NCBI GenBank assembly: GCA_050943915.1
Contig: JBMNQB010000001.1
Location: 213,712-277,711, forward strand
Length of the DNA: 64,000 nt
Direction of reading: 5' to 3'
Origin: Lawsonibacter sp.
GTDB lineage: Bacteria; Bacillota; Clostridia; Oscillospirales; Oscillospiraceae
Below, one piece after another: positions 9,890 to 42,672 of the stretch (positions are counted from its first letter, which is position 1; every line of letters begins with the position of its first letter). The position numbers and the translations under genes were made by a program. Below the pieces are notes generated by a model that made no database searches, was not told where the DNA came from, and saw nothing but the letters and a program-made list of their open reading frames with translations.

Positions 9890-10792
9890 ATGTGTAATTT
9901 CTCTCGACCAAACTCCGGCAGATCTTCCGGCGGCGGCGTCCCTGTGATCCCCCTTCCCAACCCAGGTGAGGGAGGCCCGGTGGACTCCGGCGGCGGCGTT
10001 CCAGTGATCCCCCTCCCCAACCCAGGTGAGGGAGGTCCGGTGGACTCCGGCGGCGGCGTCCCTGTGGTCCCCCTTCCCAACCCAGGCGAGGGAGGCCCGG
10101 TCTACCCAGGCGGCCAGGGGAGCGGGATCCCCGGCATCCCGGTGTGGCCCGCCGCGGCTCAGGTCCGCTTTCTCAATGCTGCCTACGGATACCCCGCCTT
10201 TCAACTTCTCATTGACGGCGTCCGGGCCGTCCGCTTTCTGGGGGGCGGAAGCCTCTCCCCCTACCGCCGTCTGCGGGCCGGGTATCATACCGTGTCAGTG
10301 GCCGGTCTGGACGGCTATATGTATCTGCAAAAGAGCATTCCCTTCGACGCTGGGAGCATCTCCACCCTGGCCGTCATCCTCCGGGCCGGCGGTCTGGATC
10401 TGCTCCAGATCTCAGACCGGTGCTGCCCGCCCACCGGCCGCTACTCCAATCTCCGGGTCAGCAATCTGGCCTATCACAGCAGACCCTTGGATGTGCTTCT
10501 GGCGGATGGCCGGGTGATCTACGCAGACGTCCGGTTCAAAGAGACCACCAGCTATAAGCGCATCCACCCCGGCACATACGAATTCTTCTTTGCTGAGACC
10601 AACCTCGCTCCCATCCCCTCCTATGCGGACATCGAGACGCTGGACTCTGCCTTCCTGGGCTCCACTCCCCCTGCCAATGTGGTGGCCTCCGACTATGTTT
10701 CCGTCTCCGGCCGCACCAATTATACCATCTTCCTCCTCAGCACCGGGAGCGCCCCGGACGCGGTCCAGGCGCTGACTGCGGCGGACCGGTGA
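9890..10792 (+). CDS. DUF4397-like protein with N-terminal Pro/Gly repeats
   Basis: Two AQVRFLNAA / NLRVSNLA beta-domain halves resembling DUF4397; RBS AAGGAGG upstream. Confidence 0.65.
   Translation: MCNFSRPNSGRSSGGGVPVIPLPNPGEGGPVDSGGGVPVIPLPNPGEGGPVDSGGGVPVVPLPNPGEGGPVYPGGQGSGIPGIPVWPAAAQVRFLNAAYGYPAFQLLIDGVRAVRFLGGGSLSPYRRLRAGYHTVSVAGLDGYMYLQKSIPFDAGSISTLAVILRAGGLDLLQISDRCCPPTGRYSNLRVSNLAYHSRPLDVLLADGRVIYADVRFKETTSYKRIHPGTYEFFFAETNLAPIPSYADIETLDSAFLGSTPPANVVASDYVSVSGRTNYTIFLLSTGSAPDAVQALTAADR
9926..10105 (+). repeat. 3 x 60 bp in-frame tandem repeat encoding SGGGVPVIPLPNPGEGGPVD
   Basis: Units start at 9926, 9986 and 10046; differences are mostly synonymous. Confidence 0.95.
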
Positions 10793-16659: not shown

Positions 16660-16674
16660 ACTTTACCCCTCCTT

Positions 16675-17349
16675 TCAACCGATGGTGACCAGTAGGTCGT
16701 CGGTGTTCACAGTGGCGCCCACATTGACGGCCACAGACTTGACGGTGCCATCCACAGGAGCGGAGACCTCGATCTCCATCTTCATGGCCTCCAGCACGAT
16801 CAGCACGTCGCCGGCCTTCACAGCCTGGCCGGGCTTGCACTCCACCTTAAAGATGTTGCCAGGCATGGGGCTGTTCACCGCGGTCTCACCGGCGGCCACA
16901 GCGGCAGGAGCCGCAGCGGGGGCCGGAGCAGGCGCAGGGGCAGCAGCGGGAGCGGGGGCAGCGGCGGGAGCCGGAGCCGCCGCGGGAGCGGCAGCCACAG
17001 GAGCGGCGGCGGGAGCCGCGCTCACGCTGGTGATGCGGAAGGAGTTGGGGGACATTCCGGAGTCCTCCGCAATGGCGGCCATCATCACGGCCACCAGCTC
17101 GCCCTCATCCACTGCGGGAGCGGCCGGCTTGGCGGCCGGCGCGGGGGCGGCAGCCTTCTTGGCGGCGGGAGCCGCGGCGGGCTTCTTCCCCTCAAGGGCG
17201 GCTACGATCTTGGAAATGACCCAAATAACCGCCATCAGCATGGCCAGCATCACAAAGACCACCAGCAGGCCGGAGGCGGCCACCAGCAGAGCCTCGCCGA
17301 CGCTCAGCGGCTCAAAGGGGTTAATAATCGCTTTCTCAACACTTGGCAT
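16675..17349 (-). CDS. OadG/GcdD-like membrane anchor fused to an Ala/Pro linker and biotinyl domain
   Basis: N-terminal single TM helix, ELVAVMMAAI motif, (AP)n linker, LEAMKME biotin site. Confidence 0.8.
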   Translation of the reverse strand: MPSVEKAIINPFEPLSVGEALLVAASGLLVVFVMLAMLMAVIWVISKIVAALEGKKPAAAPAAKKAAAPAPAAKPAAPAVDEGELVAVMMAAIAEDSGMSPNSFRITSVSAAPAAAPVAAAPAAAPAPAAAPAPAAAPAPAPAPAAAPAAVAAGETAVNSPMPGNIFKVECKPGQAVKAGDVLIVLEAMKMEIEVSAPVDGTVKSVAVNVGATVNTDDLLVTIG

Positions 17350-17366
17350 GGATCATGTCCCCCCTA

Positions 17367-17807
17367 TCAGCCCAGGGTGACCAGCAGATCGTCCGTATTC
17401 ACAGTGCCGCCCACATTGACGGCCACAGACTTGACGGTGCCGTCCACAGGAGCGGAGACCTCGATCTCCATCTTCATGGCCTCCAGCACGATCAGCACGT
17501 CGCCGGCCTTCACGCTCTGACCCACAGAGCACTCCACCTTGAAGATGTTGCCGGGCATGGGGCTGTTCACCGCAGTCTCACCGGCGGCGACCGCAGCGGG
17601 AGCGGCGGCGGGGGCGGGAGCAGCAGCAGGTGCAGGAGCGGCGGCAGGGGCGGGAGCGGGGGCAGCGGCGGGAGCGGGAGCTGCCACGGGCGCGGCGGCC
17701 ACAGGCGCGGCAGCTACGGGGGCGGCAACAGCAGCAGGAGCAGCAGCGCCGGTTTTCTCCACGGTCACGCTGTACACCTTACCGTTGACGGTCACATTGT
17801 AGTTCAT
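17367..17807 (-). CDS. gcdC: Biotin carboxyl carrier subunit of glutaconyl-CoA decarboxylase
   Basis: MNYNVTVNGKVYSVTVE, (AP)n linker, LEAMKME. Confidence 0.85.
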   Translation of the reverse strand: MNYNVTVNGKVYSVTVEKTGAAAPAAVAAPVAAAPVAAAPVAAPAPAAAPAPAPAAAPAPAAAPAPAAAPAAVAAGETAVNSPMPGNIFKVECSVGQSVKAGDVLIVLEAMKMEIEVSAPVDGTVKSVAVNVGGTVNTDDLLVTLG

Positions 17808-34381: not shown

Positions 34382-34593
34382 ATCCGTTCTCCCTTCCTGT
34401 CTCATGCAAACTCCCGGCTCCCGCCTGGCGATACGCCGCGGGAGCCGACAAATTATGATACCATTTCAAGGAAGAACTTCAAGAGGTAAAATGGGTAAAT
34501 CCCGCTGCATTTCCGCCGGTTTTATTGGCTTTCTGACAGTAAAACCAGTCCATGTCAGTTCACTTCGGGCGCAAGGCCCTCTGTCGCGCTCCT

Positions 34594-34876
34594 CCGTCTT
34601 ATCCGTTCAGCTTGGCGATCGCAGCCCTGGCAGCCATCTGCTCGGCCCTCCCCAAAAAGCTGCGCTTTCCGGGGACCCCTTTTTCTTTCATTCCTCGGGC
34701 GGAGTCAATCCGCCCTCCGGCAAAAAAATTCCCGGCCGCAGCCGGGAATTTTGTTTGGACGCGCCTTCCGGCGCGGCTCGCTTGCGCTCGCAAAAGAGGC
34801 CCGGGACAGACAGAGCTCTCCCCCGTCTTATCCGTTCAGCTTGGCGATCGCAGCCTTGGCAGCCATCTGCTCGGCC
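34594..34876. repeat. 54 bp duplication of the rnc 3' end (34594-34647 / 34823-34876) flanking a structured element
   Basis: 53/54 identical; 229 bp apart. Confidence 0.95.
34648..34822. mobile_element. Small structured non-coding element, copy 1 (MITE-like; mobility inferred)
   Basis: Shares TTCCGGGGACCC, a 32 bp core (31/32 identical) and TTGGACGC with 37893-38047. Confidence 0.6.
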
Positions 34877-35499
34877 TCTTTTTTACTATGGCCCTTGCCG
34901 CGGCCGGCCACCTCTCCGTTCAGGTCCACCTCTACAAAGAAGCGCTTGTCGTGGTCGGGGCCCTCCTCGCCGGTCAGGCGGTACTTCAAAACCTGGCCGC
35001 TCTCCCTCTGGACCAGTTCCTGAAGGGCGGTCTTATAGTCCCGGGGGCTGGTCAGTCCCTCCACCTCCCGGCAGAGGATATACTGCTGTATGATCTTCCG
35101 GGCCGATCCGATCCCGCCGTCCAGATAAACCGCGGCCAGCACTGCCTCCACGGCGTCCGCCTGGATGGAGGGGCGCTTTCGGCCGCCGCCGGACTCCTCG
35201 CCCTTGCCCAGGTGCAGATACTCGCCCAGATGCAGCGCCTCCGCCACCTCTACCAGGCTGTCCTCACACACCAGGGCCGCCCGGGTCCGGGTCAATTCCC
35301 CCTCCGGCAGATCCGGGTGATTGCGGTACAGGTGGTCGGCCACCACCATGCCCAGGATCGAGTCACCCAGGAACTCCAGCCGCTCGTTGCTCTGGAGGCG
35401 TCCCCGGCTCTCATTGGCACAGGAACTGTGGGTCAGCGCATTTTCCAGCAGCGCCGGATCCCGAAATTCATAGCCCAGCTTTTCTTCCAACGTGGTCAT
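34828..35499 (-). CDS. rnc: Ribonuclease III
   Basis: SNERLEFLGDSILG signature; C-terminal dsRBD (DYKTALQE...SKKEAEQMAA). Confidence 0.97.
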   Translation of the reverse strand: MTTLEEKLGYEFRDPALLENALTHSSCANESRGRLQSNERLEFLGDSILGMVVADHLYRNHPDLPEGELTRTRAALVCEDSLVEVAEALHLGEYLHLGKGEESGGGRKRPSIQADAVEAVLAAVYLDGGIGSARKIIQQYILCREVEGLTSPRDYKTALQELVQRESGQVLKYRLTGEEGPDHDKRFFVEVDLNGEVAGRGKGHSKKEAEQMAAKAAIAKLNG

Positions 35500-35581
35500 C
35501 AGAACCACTCCTCGTTCTTTGGTTCGACAGGCAAGCAAAACTCCGCCGTTGGGCGGAGTTCTGCGATGTATGTCGTTTGGA

Positions 35582-35815
35582 TCAGTCGATCTTGTTCTGG
35601 AGGAACCGGACCAGATCACCCACCGACTTGATGGAGGCAGCTTCCTCCTCGGTCAGTTCATCAATATCAAATTCCTCTTCCAATGCCATGGACAGATCCA
35701 CAATATCCACGGAATCCGCGTTCAGGTCATCTTCAAAGGAGGTATCCATGGTAATGGAATCCGCATCCACATTGAACTGCTCCGCGATCAGTGCGCACAC
35801 CTTTTCAAAAATCAT
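35582..35815 (-). CDS. acpP: Acyl carrier protein
   Basis: [12 protein letters not shown] phosphopantetheine motif. Confidence 0.92.
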
Positions 35816-37819: not shown

Positions 37820-38120
37820 CCGCTCACTCCAGATCCAGCTGTCCCAGGGCCTCCAGCGCCCGCTTCGACAGCTCCGCATTTTTGTTCCGCTTTTCTCCCG
37901 GAAGCGTGTCTCTCACGCTTCCGGGGACCCGGTTTTTTGAATCCTCGGGCGGAGTGAATCCGCCCTCCGGCAAGGTCCGGCTCCGCCGGACGCTTGGACG
38001 CCGCACAGCGGCGGGGCGCTCATGCGCCCAAAGGCAAGCGGAGTCGTCCGCTTACTCCAGATCCAGCTGTCCCAGGGCCTCCAGCGCCCGCTTCGACAGC
38101 TCCGCATTTTTGTTCCGCTT
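37820..38120. repeat. 73 bp duplication of the trmFO 3' end (37820-37892 / 38048-38120) flanking a structured element
   Basis: 72/73 identical (TAA in gene, TGA in copy); 228 bp apart. Confidence 0.95.
37893..38047. mobile_element. Small structured non-coding element, copy 2 (MITE-like; mobility inferred)
   Basis: Same conserved blocks and hairpin order as 34648-34822. Confidence 0.6.
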
Positions 38121-39356
38121 GCCTTTGACCCGATAGCCCAATGGGGGGATCAGGCCGAAGTTCACATTCATCGGTTGAAAGTTTACCACACTTGGGTCGC
38201 TGATGTAAAGGGCCAGCGCCCCCATGGCGGTCTCCCGGGGGAAGTCGATGGGGCTCTTTCCCTCCAGCTCCCGGGCCAGCTCCAGGGCTGCCAGGCAGCC
38301 GGAGGCCGTGGACTCCACATAGCCCTCCACCCCGGTGACCTGTCCGGCAAAGCGGATGCGCGGCTCTGCCCGCACCCGGAAATAGCGGTCCAGCAGCCGG
38401 GGGGAGTCCAGGAAGGTGTTCCGGTGCATCACCCCATAGCGCACATACTCCGCATTCCGCAGGGCGGGGATCATGGAAAACACCCGCTTCTGCTCCGGCC
38501 ATTTCAGGTGGGTCTGGAAGCCTACAATGTTGTAGATGCTCCCCTGGGCGTTGTCCTTGCGCAGCTGCACCACGGCAAAGGGCTCCCGCCCGGTCTTGGG
38601 GTCCTTCAGGCCCACCGGCTTCAAAGGCCCGTAGCACAGGGTGTCCCGCCCCCGGCGAGCCATCACCTCCACAGGCATACAGCCCTCAAAGACCCCGGCG
38701 TCCTCAAAGCCGTGGACCTCCGCCTCCTGGGCGGTGACCAGGGCCTCCCAGAAGTGCTGGTACTCCTCCTCTGTCATGGGGCAGTTGATGTAATCCGGCG
38801 TCCCCCGGTCATACCGGGAGGCAAACCAGGCGCTCTCCATATCCACACTGTCAAAGGTGACCAGCGGGGCTGCCGCGTCAAAGAAGTGCAGATAGCCGTT
38901 CTCAGGATAGCGCCGGGCGATGGCCTCCGCCAGGGGGTCGGAGGTCAGCGGCCCGCTGGCCACGATGACCTGTCCCTCCGCCGGAAGGTCTGTGACCTCC
39001 CCCTCCTCCACGGTGATCATGGGGTGGCTCCGAAGCTTCTCCGTGATGGCCTCGGAGAAGGCGTTGCGGTCCACTGCCAGCGCGCCCCCCGCCTCCACCC
39101 GGTGTGCGTCGGCGCAGGCCATGATCAGGGAGCCGCAGCGGCGCAGCTCCTCTTTCAGCAGCCCCACCGCGTTCTCCAGCTGGTCGGAGCGCAGGGAGTT
39201 GGAGCACACCAGCTCGCCGAAGGACGGGCTGTGGTGGGCCGGGGTCATCTTTTGGGGCTTCATCTCCCGGAGCGTCACGGGGATCCCCCGCCGGGCCAGC
39301 TGCCAGGCGGCCTCGCTGCCCGCCAGGCCCGCTCCAATCACAATTACAGGTTCCAT
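38052..39356 (-). CDS. trmFO: Folate/FAD-dependent tRNA (uracil-5-)-methyltransferase
   Basis: VIGAGLAGSEAA, ELVCSNSL, VGFQTHLKW, YGVMHRNTF, GVEGYVES. Confidence 0.96.
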   Translation of the reverse strand: MEPVIVIGAGLAGSEAAWQLARRGIPVTLREMKPQKMTPAHHSPSFGELVCSNSLRSDQLENAVGLLKEELRRCGSLIMACADAHRVEAGGALAVDRNAFSEAITEKLRSHPMITVEEGEVTDLPAEGQVIVASGPLTSDPLAEAIARRYPENGYLHFFDAAAPLVTFDSVDMESAWFASRYDRGTPDYINCPMTEEEYQHFWEALVTAQEAEVHGFEDAGVFEGCMPVEVMARRGRDTLCYGPLKPVGLKDPKTGREPFAVVQLRKDNAQGSIYNIVGFQTHLKWPEQKRVFSMIPALRNAEYVRYGVMHRNTFLDSPRLLDRYFRVRAEPRIRFAGQVTGVEGYVESTASGCLAALELARELEGKSPIDFPRETAMGALALYISDPSVVNFQPMNVNFGLIPPLGYRVKGKRNKNAELSKRALEALGQLDLE

Positions 39357-39400
39357 GGGTCCCTCCTGATTCTGATTTTCCTTGTGTGTTTCGCGGCGCG

Positions 39401-39607
39401 TCACCGCTCGTCTGTCCGTCCCACCAGATAGTCGATGGTGACGCCATAAAAATCGGCCATCTGCCACAAGGCAGACGCGTCTGGCTCACGCTCCCCCGCC
39501 TCATACCGGCGGTAGGAGCGATAGGCGATCCCCATTTTTTCCGCGGCTGTCTGCTGTGTCAGGCGCTGCTCCGTCCGCAGATACAAAAGTCTCTCTGATA
39601 ATTTCAT
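39401..39607 (-). CDS. XRE-type HTH protein
   Basis: LTQQTAAEKMGIAYRSYRRYEAGEREP...ADFYGVTIDYLVGR. Confidence 0.88.
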   Translation of the reverse strand: MKLSERLLYLRTEQRLTQQTAAEKMGIAYRSYRRYEAGEREPDASALWQMADFYGVTIDYLVGRTDER

Positions 39608-39732
39608 CCCATCTCTGGAACAGTCTAATCTATCTTGGCAGAGCCTTCAATATGGAGACCTTCTGTTCCTTTACCTCCGCTCGTCTGTCCGTCCCACCAG
39701 ATAGTCGATGGTGACGCCATAAAAATCGGCCA
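39404..39732. repeat. Identical 56 bp 3' segments of two tandem XRE genes (39404-39459 / 39677-39732)
   Basis: 56/56 identical, 273 bp apart; upstream parts of the genes are divergent. Confidence 0.95.
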
Positions 39733-39889
39733 GAGCGATCAGCATTTTGATGTTAGGCTCGTTATCCTCGCTCTCATAAAATTGATAGCCCCGAATGCTG
39801 ATCCCCAGATACTCAGCTAACTCCTTTTGGCTCACCTTGCGCTCTTTTCTCAGCACTCGCAAACGATCTCCAAACAATTTATGACTCAC
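39671..39889 (-). CDS. XRE-type HTH protein
   Basis: VSQKELAEYLGISIRGYQFYE...ADFYGVTIDYLVGR; GTG start. Confidence 0.88.
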   Translation of the reverse strand: MSHKLFGDRLRVLRKERKVSQKELAEYLGISIRGYQFYESEDNEPNIKMLIALADFYGVTIDYLVGRTDERR

Positions 39890-40236: not shown

Positions 40237-42672
40237 TCACGCCTCTCCGTCCGTGCTCTCCCCGTCCGCCTTTTTAGCGGCGGTTTTCTTGGCGGCTGTC
40301 TTTTTGGCGGCTGTCTTTTTGGCGGTTGTCTTTTTCGCCGCAGTTTTCTCAGCCGCCGTCTTGGACGCTGTCTTTTTGGCGGTGCTGGTCTTTTTTGCGC
40401 CGGTCTTGGAGTCCGCCGTTTTTTTGGCCGTGGTCTTTTTCCCGGCAGCCTTCTTGGTCTCGGGCTGCTTCTCCTCCGGGGAGGTCCCGGCCTCGCCGTC
40501 CCCCTCCCCGGCGGCGTCTGCCGTCTTTTTCTTCCAGCCGCCCCGCTTCTCCTCCGGGGTGAAGTTGGGGCAGCCCTCATGGATGCAGAAGGGCTTCTTG
40601 AACCCCCGCCCTGACTTCTTGAACATGGTCCAGCCGCACTCCGGGCAGTTGTCCTTCACCGGCACGTCCCAGGTCATAAAGTCGCACCTTCTGGCCTCGT
40701 CCTTGCTGTTGAGATGCTCACAGCAGTAATAGGTGTACTGCTTATTGGTCTTTTTGCTCTTTCCCGTGCGCTTGAGCAGGCGGCCGCCGCACTTGGGGCA
40801 CTTGCCGGGCATCTCCACCACCAGGGGCATGGTGAAGTCGCACTCCGGCCAGCCAGGGCAGGCCAGGAAGCGGCCGAACCGGCCGGACTTAATGACCAGG
40901 TTCCGGCCGCACTGGGGGCAGATCTCCTCTGAGACCTCGTCGGGCACCTTGATGCGCTCTCCGTCCAGCTCCTGCTCCGCCTTGTGGAGCTCCGCCTCGA
41001 AGTCCTCGTAGAACTCGGACAGGACCCGCTTCCAGTCCACGGTGCCCTCCTCTACCTTGTCCAGCTCTTCCTCCATCTGGGCGGTAAAGGTGGGGTCCAC
41101 GATGTCCTGGAACTTGTCCTTCATCAGACCGGTGACCACCTCTCCCAGAGGGGTGGGCCGGAGGGCCCGCCCCTCCTTCACCACATACTCCCGGTTGAGG
41201 ATGGTGGAGATGGTGGGGGCGTAGGTGGAGGGGCGTCCGATTCCCTTCTCCTCCAGGGCGCGGATCAGGGTGGCCTCGGAGTAACGGGCGGGAGGCTGGG
41301 TGAAGTGCTGCTCCTTCCGGGTCTCCTTCAGCTCCAGAGGCTCCCCCTCCCGCAGATCGGGCAGGGGGGACTGGGGGGCCTCCTCCTCGTCGTCCCGGCC
41401 CTCCTCATAGACGGCGGTAAAGCCGGAGAACTTCAGCTCCGAGTGGCTGGCCCGGAAGGTATAGCCGGCGGACTGCGCCTCGATGGAGACGCTGTCATAC
41501 ACCGCGCTGGCCATCTGACAGGCCAGGAAGCGGCTCCAGATCAGCTTATAAAGGCGGAACTGCTCGCTGGTCAGGTCCTTCTTGATGTCCTCCGGCACCA
41601 GGTTCACGTCGGAGGGCCGGATGGCCTCGTGGGCGTCCTGGGCGTTGCCCTTGGACTTGTAGTGCCGGGCCTGGGGGGGATAGTACTCCCGGCCATAGCG
41701 GTGCTCGATAAAGCCCTTGGCCGCGGCGATGGCCTCCTCCGACAGGCGGAGGGAGTCGGTACGCATATAGGTGATCAGACCCACTGTGCCCTCGCCGGTG
41801 ATGTCAACCCCCTCATAGAGCTGCTGGGCGATGGACATGGTTCGGGCGGGGGTCATGTTCAGCTTGCGGGAGGCCTCCTGCTGGAGGGTGGAGGTGGTGA
41901 AGGGGGGCGCGGGATTGCGCAGCTTGTCCTGCCGCTTCACCTTGGAGACGGTAAAGGGCTGGCCCGACACCGCCTGGATCACAGCGTCCGCCTCCGCCTC
42001 GCTGTGCAGCTCCATCTTTTTCTCCCGGCCATGGAACATAGCCTGGAACCCGCCTAAATTGGGACGCACCCGGCCCAGGTCCGCCTGGATGGACCAGTAC
42101 TCCTGGGGCTGGAAGGCACGGATCTCCTCCTCCCGCTCCACCACCAGGCGGGTGGCAACCGACTGCACCCGGCCGGCGGACAGCCCCCGCCGGATCTTCT
42201 TCCACAGCAGGGGAGAGAGCTCATAGCCCACGATCCGGTCCAGGATGCGCCGGGCCTGCTGGGCGTCCACCAGGTTCTGGTCGATGGCCCGGGGGCTGGC
42301 AATGGACTCGTTGACCACCTTTTTGGTGATCTCATTGAAGGTCACCCGATAGGTCTTGTCATCGGGGATGCCCAGCAGCTCCTTCAAATGCCAGGAGATG
42401 GCCTCCCCCTCCCGGTCGGGGTCGGTGGCCAGATAGACCCGGCCGCTCTTTTTGGCCGCCTTTTTCAGGTCGCTGATCACATCCTCCTTTCCCTTGATGG
42501 GCTGATAGTTGGGGATGAACCCGCCCTCGATGTCCACGCTCATCTTGCTCTTGGGCAGATCCCGGACGTGCCCCATGGACGCTTTCACTTCATAGCCCGG
42601 GCCAAGGTACTTTCCAATGGTCTTTGCCTTGGACGGGGACTCTACGATCACCAGATCAGTTTTTGATGCCAT
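40237..42672 (-). CDS. topA: DNA topoisomerase I with Zn ribbons and a Lys/Ala-rich tail
   Basis: VIVESPSKAKTI, ATDPDREGEAI, ITYMRTDS catalytic Tyr, zinc ribbons, C-terminal (KKTAA)n. Confidence 0.97.
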   Translation of the reverse strand: MASKTDLVIVESPSKAKTIGKYLGPGYEVKASMGHVRDLPKSKMSVDIEGGFIPNYQPIKGKEDVISDLKKAAKKSGRVYLATDPDREGEAISWHLKELLGIPDDKTYRVTFNEITKKVVNESIASPRAIDQNLVDAQQARRILDRIVGYELSPLLWKKIRRGLSAGRVQSVATRLVVEREEEIRAFQPQEYWSIQADLGRVRPNLGGFQAMFHGREKKMELHSEAEADAVIQAVSGQPFTVSKVKRQDKLRNPAPPFTTSTLQQEASRKLNMTPARTMSIAQQLYEGVDITGEGTVGLITYMRTDSLRLSEEAIAAAKGFIEHRYGREYYPPQARHYKSKGNAQDAHEAIRPSDVNLVPEDIKKDLTSEQFRLYKLIWSRFLACQMASAVYDSVSIEAQSAGYTFRASHSELKFSGFTAVYEEGRDDEEEAPQSPLPDLREGEPLELKETRKEQHFTQPPARYSEATLIRALEEKGIGRPSTYAPTISTILNREYVVKEGRALRPTPLGEVVTGLMKDKFQDIVDPTFTAQMEEELDKVEEGTVDWKRVLSEFYEDFEAELHKAEQELDGERIKVPDEVSEEICPQCGRNLVIKSGRFGRFLACPGWPECDFTMPLVVEMPGKCPKCGGRLLKRTGKSKKTNKQYTYYCCEHLNSKDEARRCDFMTWDVPVKDNCPECGWTMFKKSGRGFKKPFCIHEGCPNFTPEEKRGGWKKKTADAAGEGDGEAGTSPEEKQPETKKAAGKKTTAKKTADSKTGAKKTSTAKKTASKTAAEKTAAKKTTAKKTAAKKTAAKKTAAKKADGESTDGEA

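Follow-up and report, generated by a model that had tools for sequence, protein, structure and literature searches.

The window analysed here is the whole 64,000-nt stretch C1:213712-277711 of a metagenome-assembled Lawsonibacter sp. draft genome (2.16 Mb in 44 contigs, G000 in our comparisons). Within it two intact genes, rnc and a trmFO-type gene, are each accompanied by a second copy of their own 3' end, and a short, folded, non-coding element lies between the functional end and the displaced one (Table 1). A repeat search of the window returned a 62-nt direct repeat at rnc (34586-34647 and 34815-34876, spacing 229 nt) and bore out an earlier, sequence-only reading of this DNA, in which the last 54 bp of rnc were seen to recur 229 bp downstream with one mismatch: positions 34594-34647 differ from their partner at 1 of 54 nt. 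The repeated segment comprises the last 46 coding nucleotides, the stop codon and 5-13 nt beyond it. That reading also took the 175 bp between the repeats as a non-coding element. Such an element is indeed enclosed, but it does not fill the interval, which divides into an element core, a short inverted copy of target sequence (IC) and a stretch of native flank.

The second direct repeat measures 73 nt (37820-37892 and 38048-38120, spacing 228 nt) and duplicates the end of the trmFO-type gene at 72/73 identity, the sole mismatch changing the stop codon from TAA to TGA. The claim that the two inserts match was confirmed: they have the same orientation, are identical at 31 of 32 nt in a shared core and keep the same order of hairpins, three of which differ in sequence. 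The sequence TTCCGGGGACCC is present exactly twice in the window (34667 and 37919). Folding of the two inserts is far stronger than that of dinucleotide shuffles on either strand (z -3.8 to -5.8), and no tRNA or tmRNA was detected in the window by ARAGORN. Throughout, we describe the anatomy of the element as read on the plus strand at both window copies. The unit then begins with the outer gene-end copy, which is joined to hairpin 1 (hp1), and continues as hp1 - T-rich linker - CTCGG - hp2 - GCGCC - hp3 - TACG - hp4 - (hp5) - IC - inner gene-end copy, the last being continuous with the gene body.

Table 1. Features of the rnc and trmFO loci, in window positions; a slash between bases or positions of a target marks the joining point (dsRBD, double-stranded RNA-binding domain)
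Feature	Position	Strand	Remarks
Outer (displaced) copy of rnc 3' end	34586..34647	-	34594-34647 near-identical to the functional end; 34586-34593 extends it with mismatches
Element core E, rnc copy, antisense to rnc	34648..34791	+	covariance-model match C1:248357-248487; order hp1 (CCCC..GGGGACCCC), T-rich linker, CTCGG-hp2 (GGGCGGA with TCCGCCC), long helix hp3, TTGGACG, hp4 (CGCGCC with GGCGCG), GCTCGCTTGCGCTCGC tail
IC of rnc copy, AAAAGAGGCC	34792..34801	+	reverse complement of GGCC/TCTTTT (34873-34882) across junction 34876/34877; also found as inverted repeat
Native 3' flank of rnc, beside functional stop codon	34802..34827	-	homologous to rnc downstream sequence in the closest relative, G014
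Inner (functional) rnc end	34828..34876	-	stop codon 34828-34830 and last 46 coding nt; hp1-side junction corresponds to 34876/34877
rnc (RNase III), host gene, intact	34828..35619	-	Pfam RNase III and dsRBD domains
Outer (displaced) trmFO 3' end, stop TGA	37820..37892	-	
Element core E, trmFO copy	37893..38028	+	orientation and hairpin order as in rnc copy
IC of trmFO copy, CAAAGGCAAGCGGA	38029..38042	+	reverse complement of TCCGCTT/GCCTTTG (38114-38127) across junction 38120/38121
Inner (functional) trmFO end	38048..38120	-	stop TAA 38052-38054, 4 nt beyond and 66 coding nt
trmFO-type gene, host gene, intact	38052..39467	-	GidA family, TrmFO size

We considered the rnc locus of G014 as an empty site and rejected it, since it resembles a decayed element without the outer repeat. 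At that locus (L013 1050-1200) sequence like hp3, the linker and the IC region is kept; the outer rnc copy and an intact element are missing. Metagenome contigs at the rnc locus break up at the repeats and say nothing on empty alleles.

Other repeats occur in the window. Two tandem minus-strand genes of the XRE family of helix-turn-helix proteins (39401-39889) share identical 56-nt 3' ends (39404-39459 and 39677-39732, spacing 273 nt) and differ elsewhere; no element lies between them, and this repeat, which is unrelated to the element family, looks like gene conversion or duplication. Repetitive coding sequence rich in Ala, Gly and Pro probably accounts for the long GC-rich tandem repeats at 16667-17748 and 9926-10114 (a 9-18-nt periodicity within a duplicated block of 692 nt, and three units of 60 nt). 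A 15-nt periodic repeat at 40251-40460, with 11 CTGTCTTTTTGGCGG-like copies, probably encodes a Lys/Ala-rich repeat protein on the minus strand.

The element family and its inverted copy of the joining point

The core hairpin recurs genome-wide. In the 2.16-Mb genome we counted 37 copies by nhmmer with a six-copy seed and 34 by covariance model, and a k-mer scan located short-range direct repeats of the element type at about 24 loci. Element loci are frequently tandem arrays of two to three units, and nine tandem arrays with periods of 190-241 nt were reported by Tandem Repeats Finder. Hosts in this genome are rnc, trmFO, lepA, uvrB, ackA, pgk, groES, a HIT-family gene, a pta-like gene and an aspS-like gene, together with the 5' end of a copA-type gene and two tRNA-Gly trailers. 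The array at ackA consists of four gene tails and three elements, and those at the HIT-family gene, lepA and others have two. At C20:11263-11518 an element copy stands inside an operon, between groES and groEL, together with a duplicate of the groES end. The two tRNA-Gly(GCC) genes (C32:6500-7280 and C1:72450-72850) have near-identical promoters, and each is followed by an element that lacks hp1, the terminator hairpin of the tRNA standing at the hp1 position; on C32, terminator and element form a 3-unit, 211-nt array that abuts the stop codon of a convergent gene.

For comparison with other genomes we used a pattern scan of one genome per species, which gave at least 120 loci. As the sequence-only reading had anticipated, other copies are also flanked by gene-end duplications, at about 24 loci in this genome and at 96 of 178 copies among those at least 120 loci, and because element and duplication recur together in this way chance is excluded. 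That the arrangement is an artefact of assembly or binning has next to no probability. The genome is a 44-contig draft and metagenome contigs do break at short repeats, but the same architecture is present in complete genomes (G014 is one 3,558,314-bp contig), in isolates, Flavonifractor plautii ATCC 29863 among them, and in hundreds of independent assemblies, including independent metagenome contigs.

The matches listed come from Flavonifractor (including F. plautii ATCC 29863), Pseudoflavonifractor, Lawsonibacter, Intestinimonas, Oscillibacter, Dysosmobacter and many uncultured Oscillospiraceae. Among these matches there are at least 55 independent target clusters, and the most recurrent neighbours are conserved housekeeping genes, with lepA in 11 records. 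The distribution is patchy. In a survey of 301 genomes (152 genera) across the order, the element was present in 25 genomes and 17 genera. Counts in 31 relatives start at 0, the value for many congeners (a closed 3.7-Mb genome is one of them), reach 19-46 in others and peak at 93. The last value belongs to G024, a 1.9-Mb genome of another family; G013 has 46 copies.

The scaffold E measures about 125-145 nt and has four to five hairpins, of which hp1 reads CCC-variable stem-GGGGNCCC and the long helix hp3 reads CAAGGTTTTGCC...GGCAAAACGCTTG. For 52 copies from distinct targets RNAalifold predicted 25 pairs, 19 of them with compensatory double changes. Under this structure 95.1% of cells are paired (81.6% in shuffles) and double changes affect 150 cells (49.5 in shuffles), a count that none of 500 shuffles reached; slid controls all collapse. 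The covariation is therefore significant against shuffles, and the description of the family as a structure-conserved, non-autonomous, non-coding element tied to gene ends stood. Counts of G-U and A-C pairs were mixed and do not decide the folding strand.

The two ends of the scaffold differ. On the hp1 side the boundary is sharp, the outer repeat stopping within 3 nt on either side of model position 1 in 74 single-unit copies, and on the far side a variable gap separates hp4 or hp5 from the detectable repeat. The IC sits in this gap, directly after hp4/hp5, and is a 10-18-nt reverse complement of the uninterrupted target across the hp1 joining point, reaching about 6 nt into the gene body and 7-10 nt into the duplicate. 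At 72 loci the best inverted match had a median score of 11-12 and reached 10 or more at 53; none of about 290 control junctions, placed 40-100 nt further into the same genes, reached 10 (maximum 9). The sequence-only reading had suggested that the element carries a gene-specific segment, which is so, although this type of segment, complementary to the copy's own junction, had been missed. In three to four cases of orthologous insertion (L106 vs G000 C8; L044 vs L113; L110 vs L059) the IC follows synonymous changes of the target. The junction site is N/NCC, with C at the second base after the junction in 43 of 55 targets and at the third in 31 of 55, a preference that mirrors the element's own NYCCCC start. 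Microhomology is significant only for this NCC at the hp1 joint and is not above chance at the joint between IC and gene end.

A search of Rfam (4227 families) with the window region and with eight other loci holding ten copies gave no credible match (E<=10 or E<=1), full-text literature searches turned up no description of such an element, and a phage collection yielded only partial matches to three unannotated 4-5-kb faecal contigs. This protein-less, folded element of about 140 nt from gut Oscillospiraceae is apparently undescribed. The genome also holds a second, unrelated family of non-coding elements of about 200 nt (C2:116540-116808, C6:63886-64163 and C13:39042-39306), in which the flanking direct repeat of 30-36 nt is a whole terminator hairpin, and a third element of about 160 nt between duplicated 37-nt terminator hairpins (C41:2172-2406). 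In these two families an inverted junction copy is marginal (score 9 at one locus of the second family).

Duplicated gene ends and their alleles

Insertion had been placed just past stop codons, but the sharp hp1 junction lies 27-108 nt inside the coding sequence. It is the far boundary of the outer repeat that lies at the stop codon: at 65 loci with an open minus-strand frame its mode is exactly 0, and it falls within -10 to +11 at 45. In a minority of loci the repeated piece is instead the 5' end of a gene, beginning at or next to the ATG (L047, L095, L100). Duplicates are 36-113 nt long and periods range from 163 to 302 nt, and on these ranges a fixed ruler or circle of about 229 nt was rejected.

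Since a test based on open reading frames is uninformative in GC-rich DNA, we judged the gene-body side by the periodicity of G+C at third codon positions (GC3). In 40 of 48 targets the IC-side flank carries on the periodicity of the inner copy in phase, and in only 2 of 48 does the outer copy carry on that of the hp1-side flank; its median strength is 0.39 on the IC side and 0.105 on the hp1 side. If a staggered cut were followed by selection for intact genes, the two geometries should be equally frequent, and the 40:2 polarity argues against this; the same polarity matches what is predicted for a cassette that brings its own gene end.

The two copies of a gene end do not look like a working end and its decaying duplicate. 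Over 38 clusters, 96 of 162 mismatches between inner and outer copies (59%) are at codon position 3. Many loci show synonymous differences alone, and the 14 cleanest loci together have 52 synonymous and 4 non-synonymous codon differences. Counted per decile from the junction outwards to the stop-codon end, mismatches number 2, 7, 11, 8, 12, 9, 11, 21, 35 and 46, and the substitution spectrum between the copies is T>C 29, A>G 28, C>T 21 and G>A 19. The bias toward position 3 and the distal crowding do not fit a dead copy decaying in place, and they do fit two working gene ends from different lineages with co-conversion near the joining point.

Empty sites, which the sequence-only reading proposed to look for in close genomes, were found. 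The lepA site is empty in four congeners, where a terminator follows directly after the TAA, and filled in G000 (two units) and in G014 (one unit). The lepA tail alleles of the two filled genomes are swapped, the inner allele of G000 being the outer allele of G014 and vice versa, and their elements differ by two compensatory pairs in hp2. The sites at ackA and at the C2:94128 gene are filled in G000 and element-free in G014, with gene bodies 97-99% identical; the DNA downstream of ackA is unrelated between the two genomes. Given the 52:4 synonymous differences, the 40/48 polarity and the lepA swap, it is unlikely that the gene-tail repeat is a target duplication made in situ, as had been proposed. 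At C2:94128-94439, compared with L147, the outer gene-end copy is followed by an IC remnant with the first 6 nt of an element and then by native flank, which suggests a former second unit that has been deleted nearly entirely. Elements at the same target in different genomes have a median identity of 66%, as against 54% for different targets within this genome, and there has therefore been no recent intragenomic burst; the lineages are tied to their targets.

Mechanism and rival explanations

In mouse-gut metatranscriptome contigs matching F. plautii, which carry no strand information and in which DNA carry-over is possible, the host gene, its stop codon (7235 of L063), the element and the next unit follow each other in that order. 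Where it sits at a gene's 3' end, the element very likely belongs to the 3' untranslated region (UTR) of the host mRNA. At 5'-end sites its polarity relative to the transcript is opposite, which argues for a fold that acts at the DNA level or strand-neutrally, not as one specific RNA.

We favour, at a probability of about one half, the interpretation that the family is a non-autonomous, base-pair-addressed cassette, composed of a scaffold, a guide-like IC and a replacement gene end, and joined at an IC-matched N/NCC site in conserved genes. Such a cassette would join a conserved housekeeping gene at N/NCC, 27-108 nt from the gene end. The carried end, reaching from the joining point to the stop or start codon, would keep the gene intact, and the resident end would be pushed to the hp1 side, where it would appear as the 'duplicate'. 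The IC would pair with the target, probably as single-stranded DNA because the element occurs in both transcript polarities, and the pairing would set the phosphodiester that a trans-acting enzyme cuts and joins, much as in guide-defined cleavage at IS200/IS605 ends or at folded attC sites. The unit would spread mainly by homing to the corresponding conserved gene in genomes that have no copy there, and sequence near the junction would be co-converted. Tandem arrays may come from repeated insertion or from unequal crossing-over between repeats. We tentatively go further, on a proposal that we consider doubtful but possible, and suggest that scaffold and IC may be the nucleic-acid half of a programmable DNA-insertion system. 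In it about 13 nt of pairing would fix the phosphodiester at which a unit of 200-250 nt joins; the trans-acting joining protein, possibly a host housekeeping protein, would be none of the Y1-HUH, reverse transcriptase, IS110-DEDD, IS4-DDE or TnpB types; and an IC and a carried end rewritten together would retarget the unit.

Several observations weigh against the cassette. The search for a partner enzyme was made over draft genomes, in which absence is not proof, and the five classical candidates fail the phyletic test. Y1_Tnp (PF01797) is absent from G013 and G024, and so is RVT_1 (PF00078), which is also absent from G010 and G017, results that speak against the reverse transcriptase or HUH partner proposed in the sequence-only reading. 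DEDD_Tnp_IS110 (PF01548) is absent from G013, G024 and G010, the IS4-type DDE_Tnp_1 (PF01609) has no match in G000, G010 or G024 and 37 in the element-free G009, and the TnpB zinc-ribbon (PF07282) is absent from G024 and G010 and has no more than a sub-threshold match in G000. G024, with its 93 copies, is without all five, and the same pattern is consistent over the five families. Among open reading frames recurring within 3.5 kb of copies at the at least 120 loci, only housekeeping targets (lepA, infB-like, truB, aspS-like) were found, with no candidate for an autonomous parent. About four target mismatches are untracked by the IC, so that tracking is mixed. The target junction is intact in the filled allele, and the IC therefore cannot tell empty from filled sites as a homing nuclease does. 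A new IC and a new carried end would have to be acquired at each of at least 55 targets, and the IC could instead be the scar of a strand-switch founder event. Sites that are filled in one genome and empty in another could owe their difference to loss, through recombination of one repeat with the other, and not to gain. In this genome we found no multi-copy transposase. The only large multi-copy genes in the draft are four to five 2-kb paralogues, 80-88% identical, that encode surface proteins with S-layer homology (SLH) domains (C6:98776-100753, C8:60647-62699, C17:2770-4766 and C17:35806-37684).

The main alternative, which we consider improbable but deserving of attention, is that the element is a passive hitch-hiker without a dedicated enzyme. 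One template-switch founder event per target, during replication or repair, would have copied an existing element into a gene end, leaving the duplicate and a 13-nt IC as scars, and spread would have followed by vertical descent and by RecA-mediated recombination with the flanking conserved coding segments as homology arms. The failure to find a partner protein agrees with this, as do the 2-3-nt NCC microhomology at the hp1 junction, the gradient of mismatches (identity near the element and divergence near the stop codon), which resembles crossover points within the outer copy, the old, target-specific lineages and the non-homologous regions downstream of ackA in G000 and G014; unequal crossing-over would account for the arrays. 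It requires, however, the same multi-switch outcome at at least 55 independent targets, each time with an IC of constant size centred on the junction and with a duplicate that stops at the stop codon, and with a strict 40:2 polarity. The IC tracks some synonymous changes, the stems are under strong purifying and compensatory selection, one genome has 93 copies and many congeners none, and the swap of lepA alleles is hard to obtain by homologous crossovers alone. Transcription with the host gene, the strong covariation and the target-specific lineages could also be read as signs of an immobile structured 3'-UTR RNA, a stabiliser or regulator like REP, ERIC or BOX, whose IC pairs with the last codons of the mRNA in a helix that would enclose the stop codon, the duplications being local slippage. 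We judge this unlikely: filled and empty sites differ between close relatives, the distribution is patchy at 0-93 copies, one scaffold occurs in at least 55 unrelated genes and has a matching IC in each, at gene 5' ends the polarity is reversed, and inverted patches are not a product of slippage.

Two kinds of transposition were weighed as well. Elements of the IS1634/IS1549 type make long, variable target duplications, and the variable direct repeats of 36-113 nt that flank our element could suggest a transposable element of the miniature inverted-repeat kind (MITE), mobilized by a trans-acting DDE transposase with a stagger of 40-110 bp, gap filling then duplicating the gene tail. There is rather little to recommend this. 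Neither the alignments nor the repeat search reveal terminal inverted repeats, the ends being NYCCCC-hp1 on one side and hp4/hp5 with a target-derived IC on the other; the IC is left unexplained; the 40:2 polarity contradicts a symmetrical cut with selection; the copies differ synonymously and distally, not by neutral decay, and the lepA alleles are swapped; PF01609 is distributed as described above; and pairs of copies from this genome resemble each other no more than random pairs do. Lower still is the chance of a retro-element, or of a process like that of diversity-generating retroelements (DGRs), in which the element RNA is co-transcribed with the host gene and reverse-transcribed and a cDNA of gene tail and element is integrated. 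The element does occur within the host transcript in the F. plautii metatranscriptomes, one of its ends is precise, it forms tandem arrays, and the gene 3' end is repeated downstream as in the DGR layout. Against these stand the absence of RVT_1 from the four genomes named above and of any reverse transcriptase near the window copies, the substitutions, which are ordinary transitions in both directions and not adenine-specific, the lack of a group II intron or retron RNA by Rfam and the opposite transcript polarity in the 5'-end cases.

Relation to known systems and implications

Among the known families that could be tested there is none whose defining tests the element passes. IS200/IS605 ends, palindrome-associated transposable elements (PATEs) and the repetitive extragenic palindromic (REP) sequences with their RAYT transposases are also protein-less, hairpin-rich and acted upon in trans, and hairpins with a pairing guide occur in them as here. 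In IS608, short internal guides base-pair with the cleavage and target sites, a specificity that is encoded in nucleic acid and exerted on single strands. In IS200/IS605 all copies share the same guides of 4 nt, whereas the IC is far longer and copy-specific; those elements insert without a duplication or a carried gene end, in contrast to the 36-113-nt duplicates found here; and they need the Y1 transposase that G013 and G024 lack. TnpB/IscB elements with an omega-RNA have a TnpB-type nuclease, and PF07282 is absent from the element-bearing G024 and G010. The bridge (seek) RNAs of IS110/IS1111 and the pairing between exon- and intron-binding sequences (EBS-IBS) of group II introns resemble the IC in that 10-14 nt of pairing between a structured non-coding part and the target set the insertion point. 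Their guides, however, are the same in all copies and nothing is duplicated, DEDD transposase and reverse transcriptase do not co-occur with the element, and no intron RNA was found in Rfam.

Prophages, integrative and conjugative elements (ICEs) and cis-mobilizable elements (CIMEs) at the 3' ends of genes or tRNAs likewise supply a new 3' end that keeps the host gene intact, leave the displaced end as a direct repeat and accrete into arrays. They are kilobases long, with one conserved att site per integrase and no internal inverted junction copy, whereas our element has about 140 nt and at least 55 different targets that each have their own IC; the targets share only the NCC motif, which speaks against a fixed att core. 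Integron attC sites come near in another respect, since they have an internal 'inverse core' complementary to a junction-spanning core, a folded single strand as substrate and cassette arrays. The attC core is a fixed 7-nt consensus (GTTRRRY with RYYYAAC) and is used with IntI and one attI platform, in contrast to a pair that is target-specific and lies within housekeeping genes; no fixed attC-like core is visible in our junction logos. The direct repeats of tens to hundreds of bp that flank IS1634/IS1549 insertions recall those described here, but the element has neither terminal inverted repeats nor a DDE partner, and has a strict polarity, synonymous differences and an IC. REP, ERIC and BOX are also small hairpin repeats just 3' of genes, in transcribed 3' UTRs and sometimes in tandem; they have no gene-end duplication and no target-complementary segment, both of which the element has.

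If the element is a cassette of the kind we favour, it would represent bacterial mobile DNA without a described counterpart: a scaffold of about 140 nt with no gene of its own, which would have entered conserved essential genes without breaking them by means of a replacement end and would carry a copy-specific complement of its insertion point. It would then become testable how a minimal guided insertion works, which cellular enzyme is exploited and whether the guide can be reprogrammed. Even as a passive hitch-hiker the element would follow a new strategy, in which duplicated conserved coding sequence provides a repeat with its own homology arm for spreading. In common genera of the human and animal gut (Flavonifractor, Lawsonibacter, Oscillibacter and Intestinimonas) dozens of copies per genome have left duplicated gene ends and arrays, which break assemblies, mislead gene callers and lengthen housekeeping mRNAs with structured 3' UTRs.

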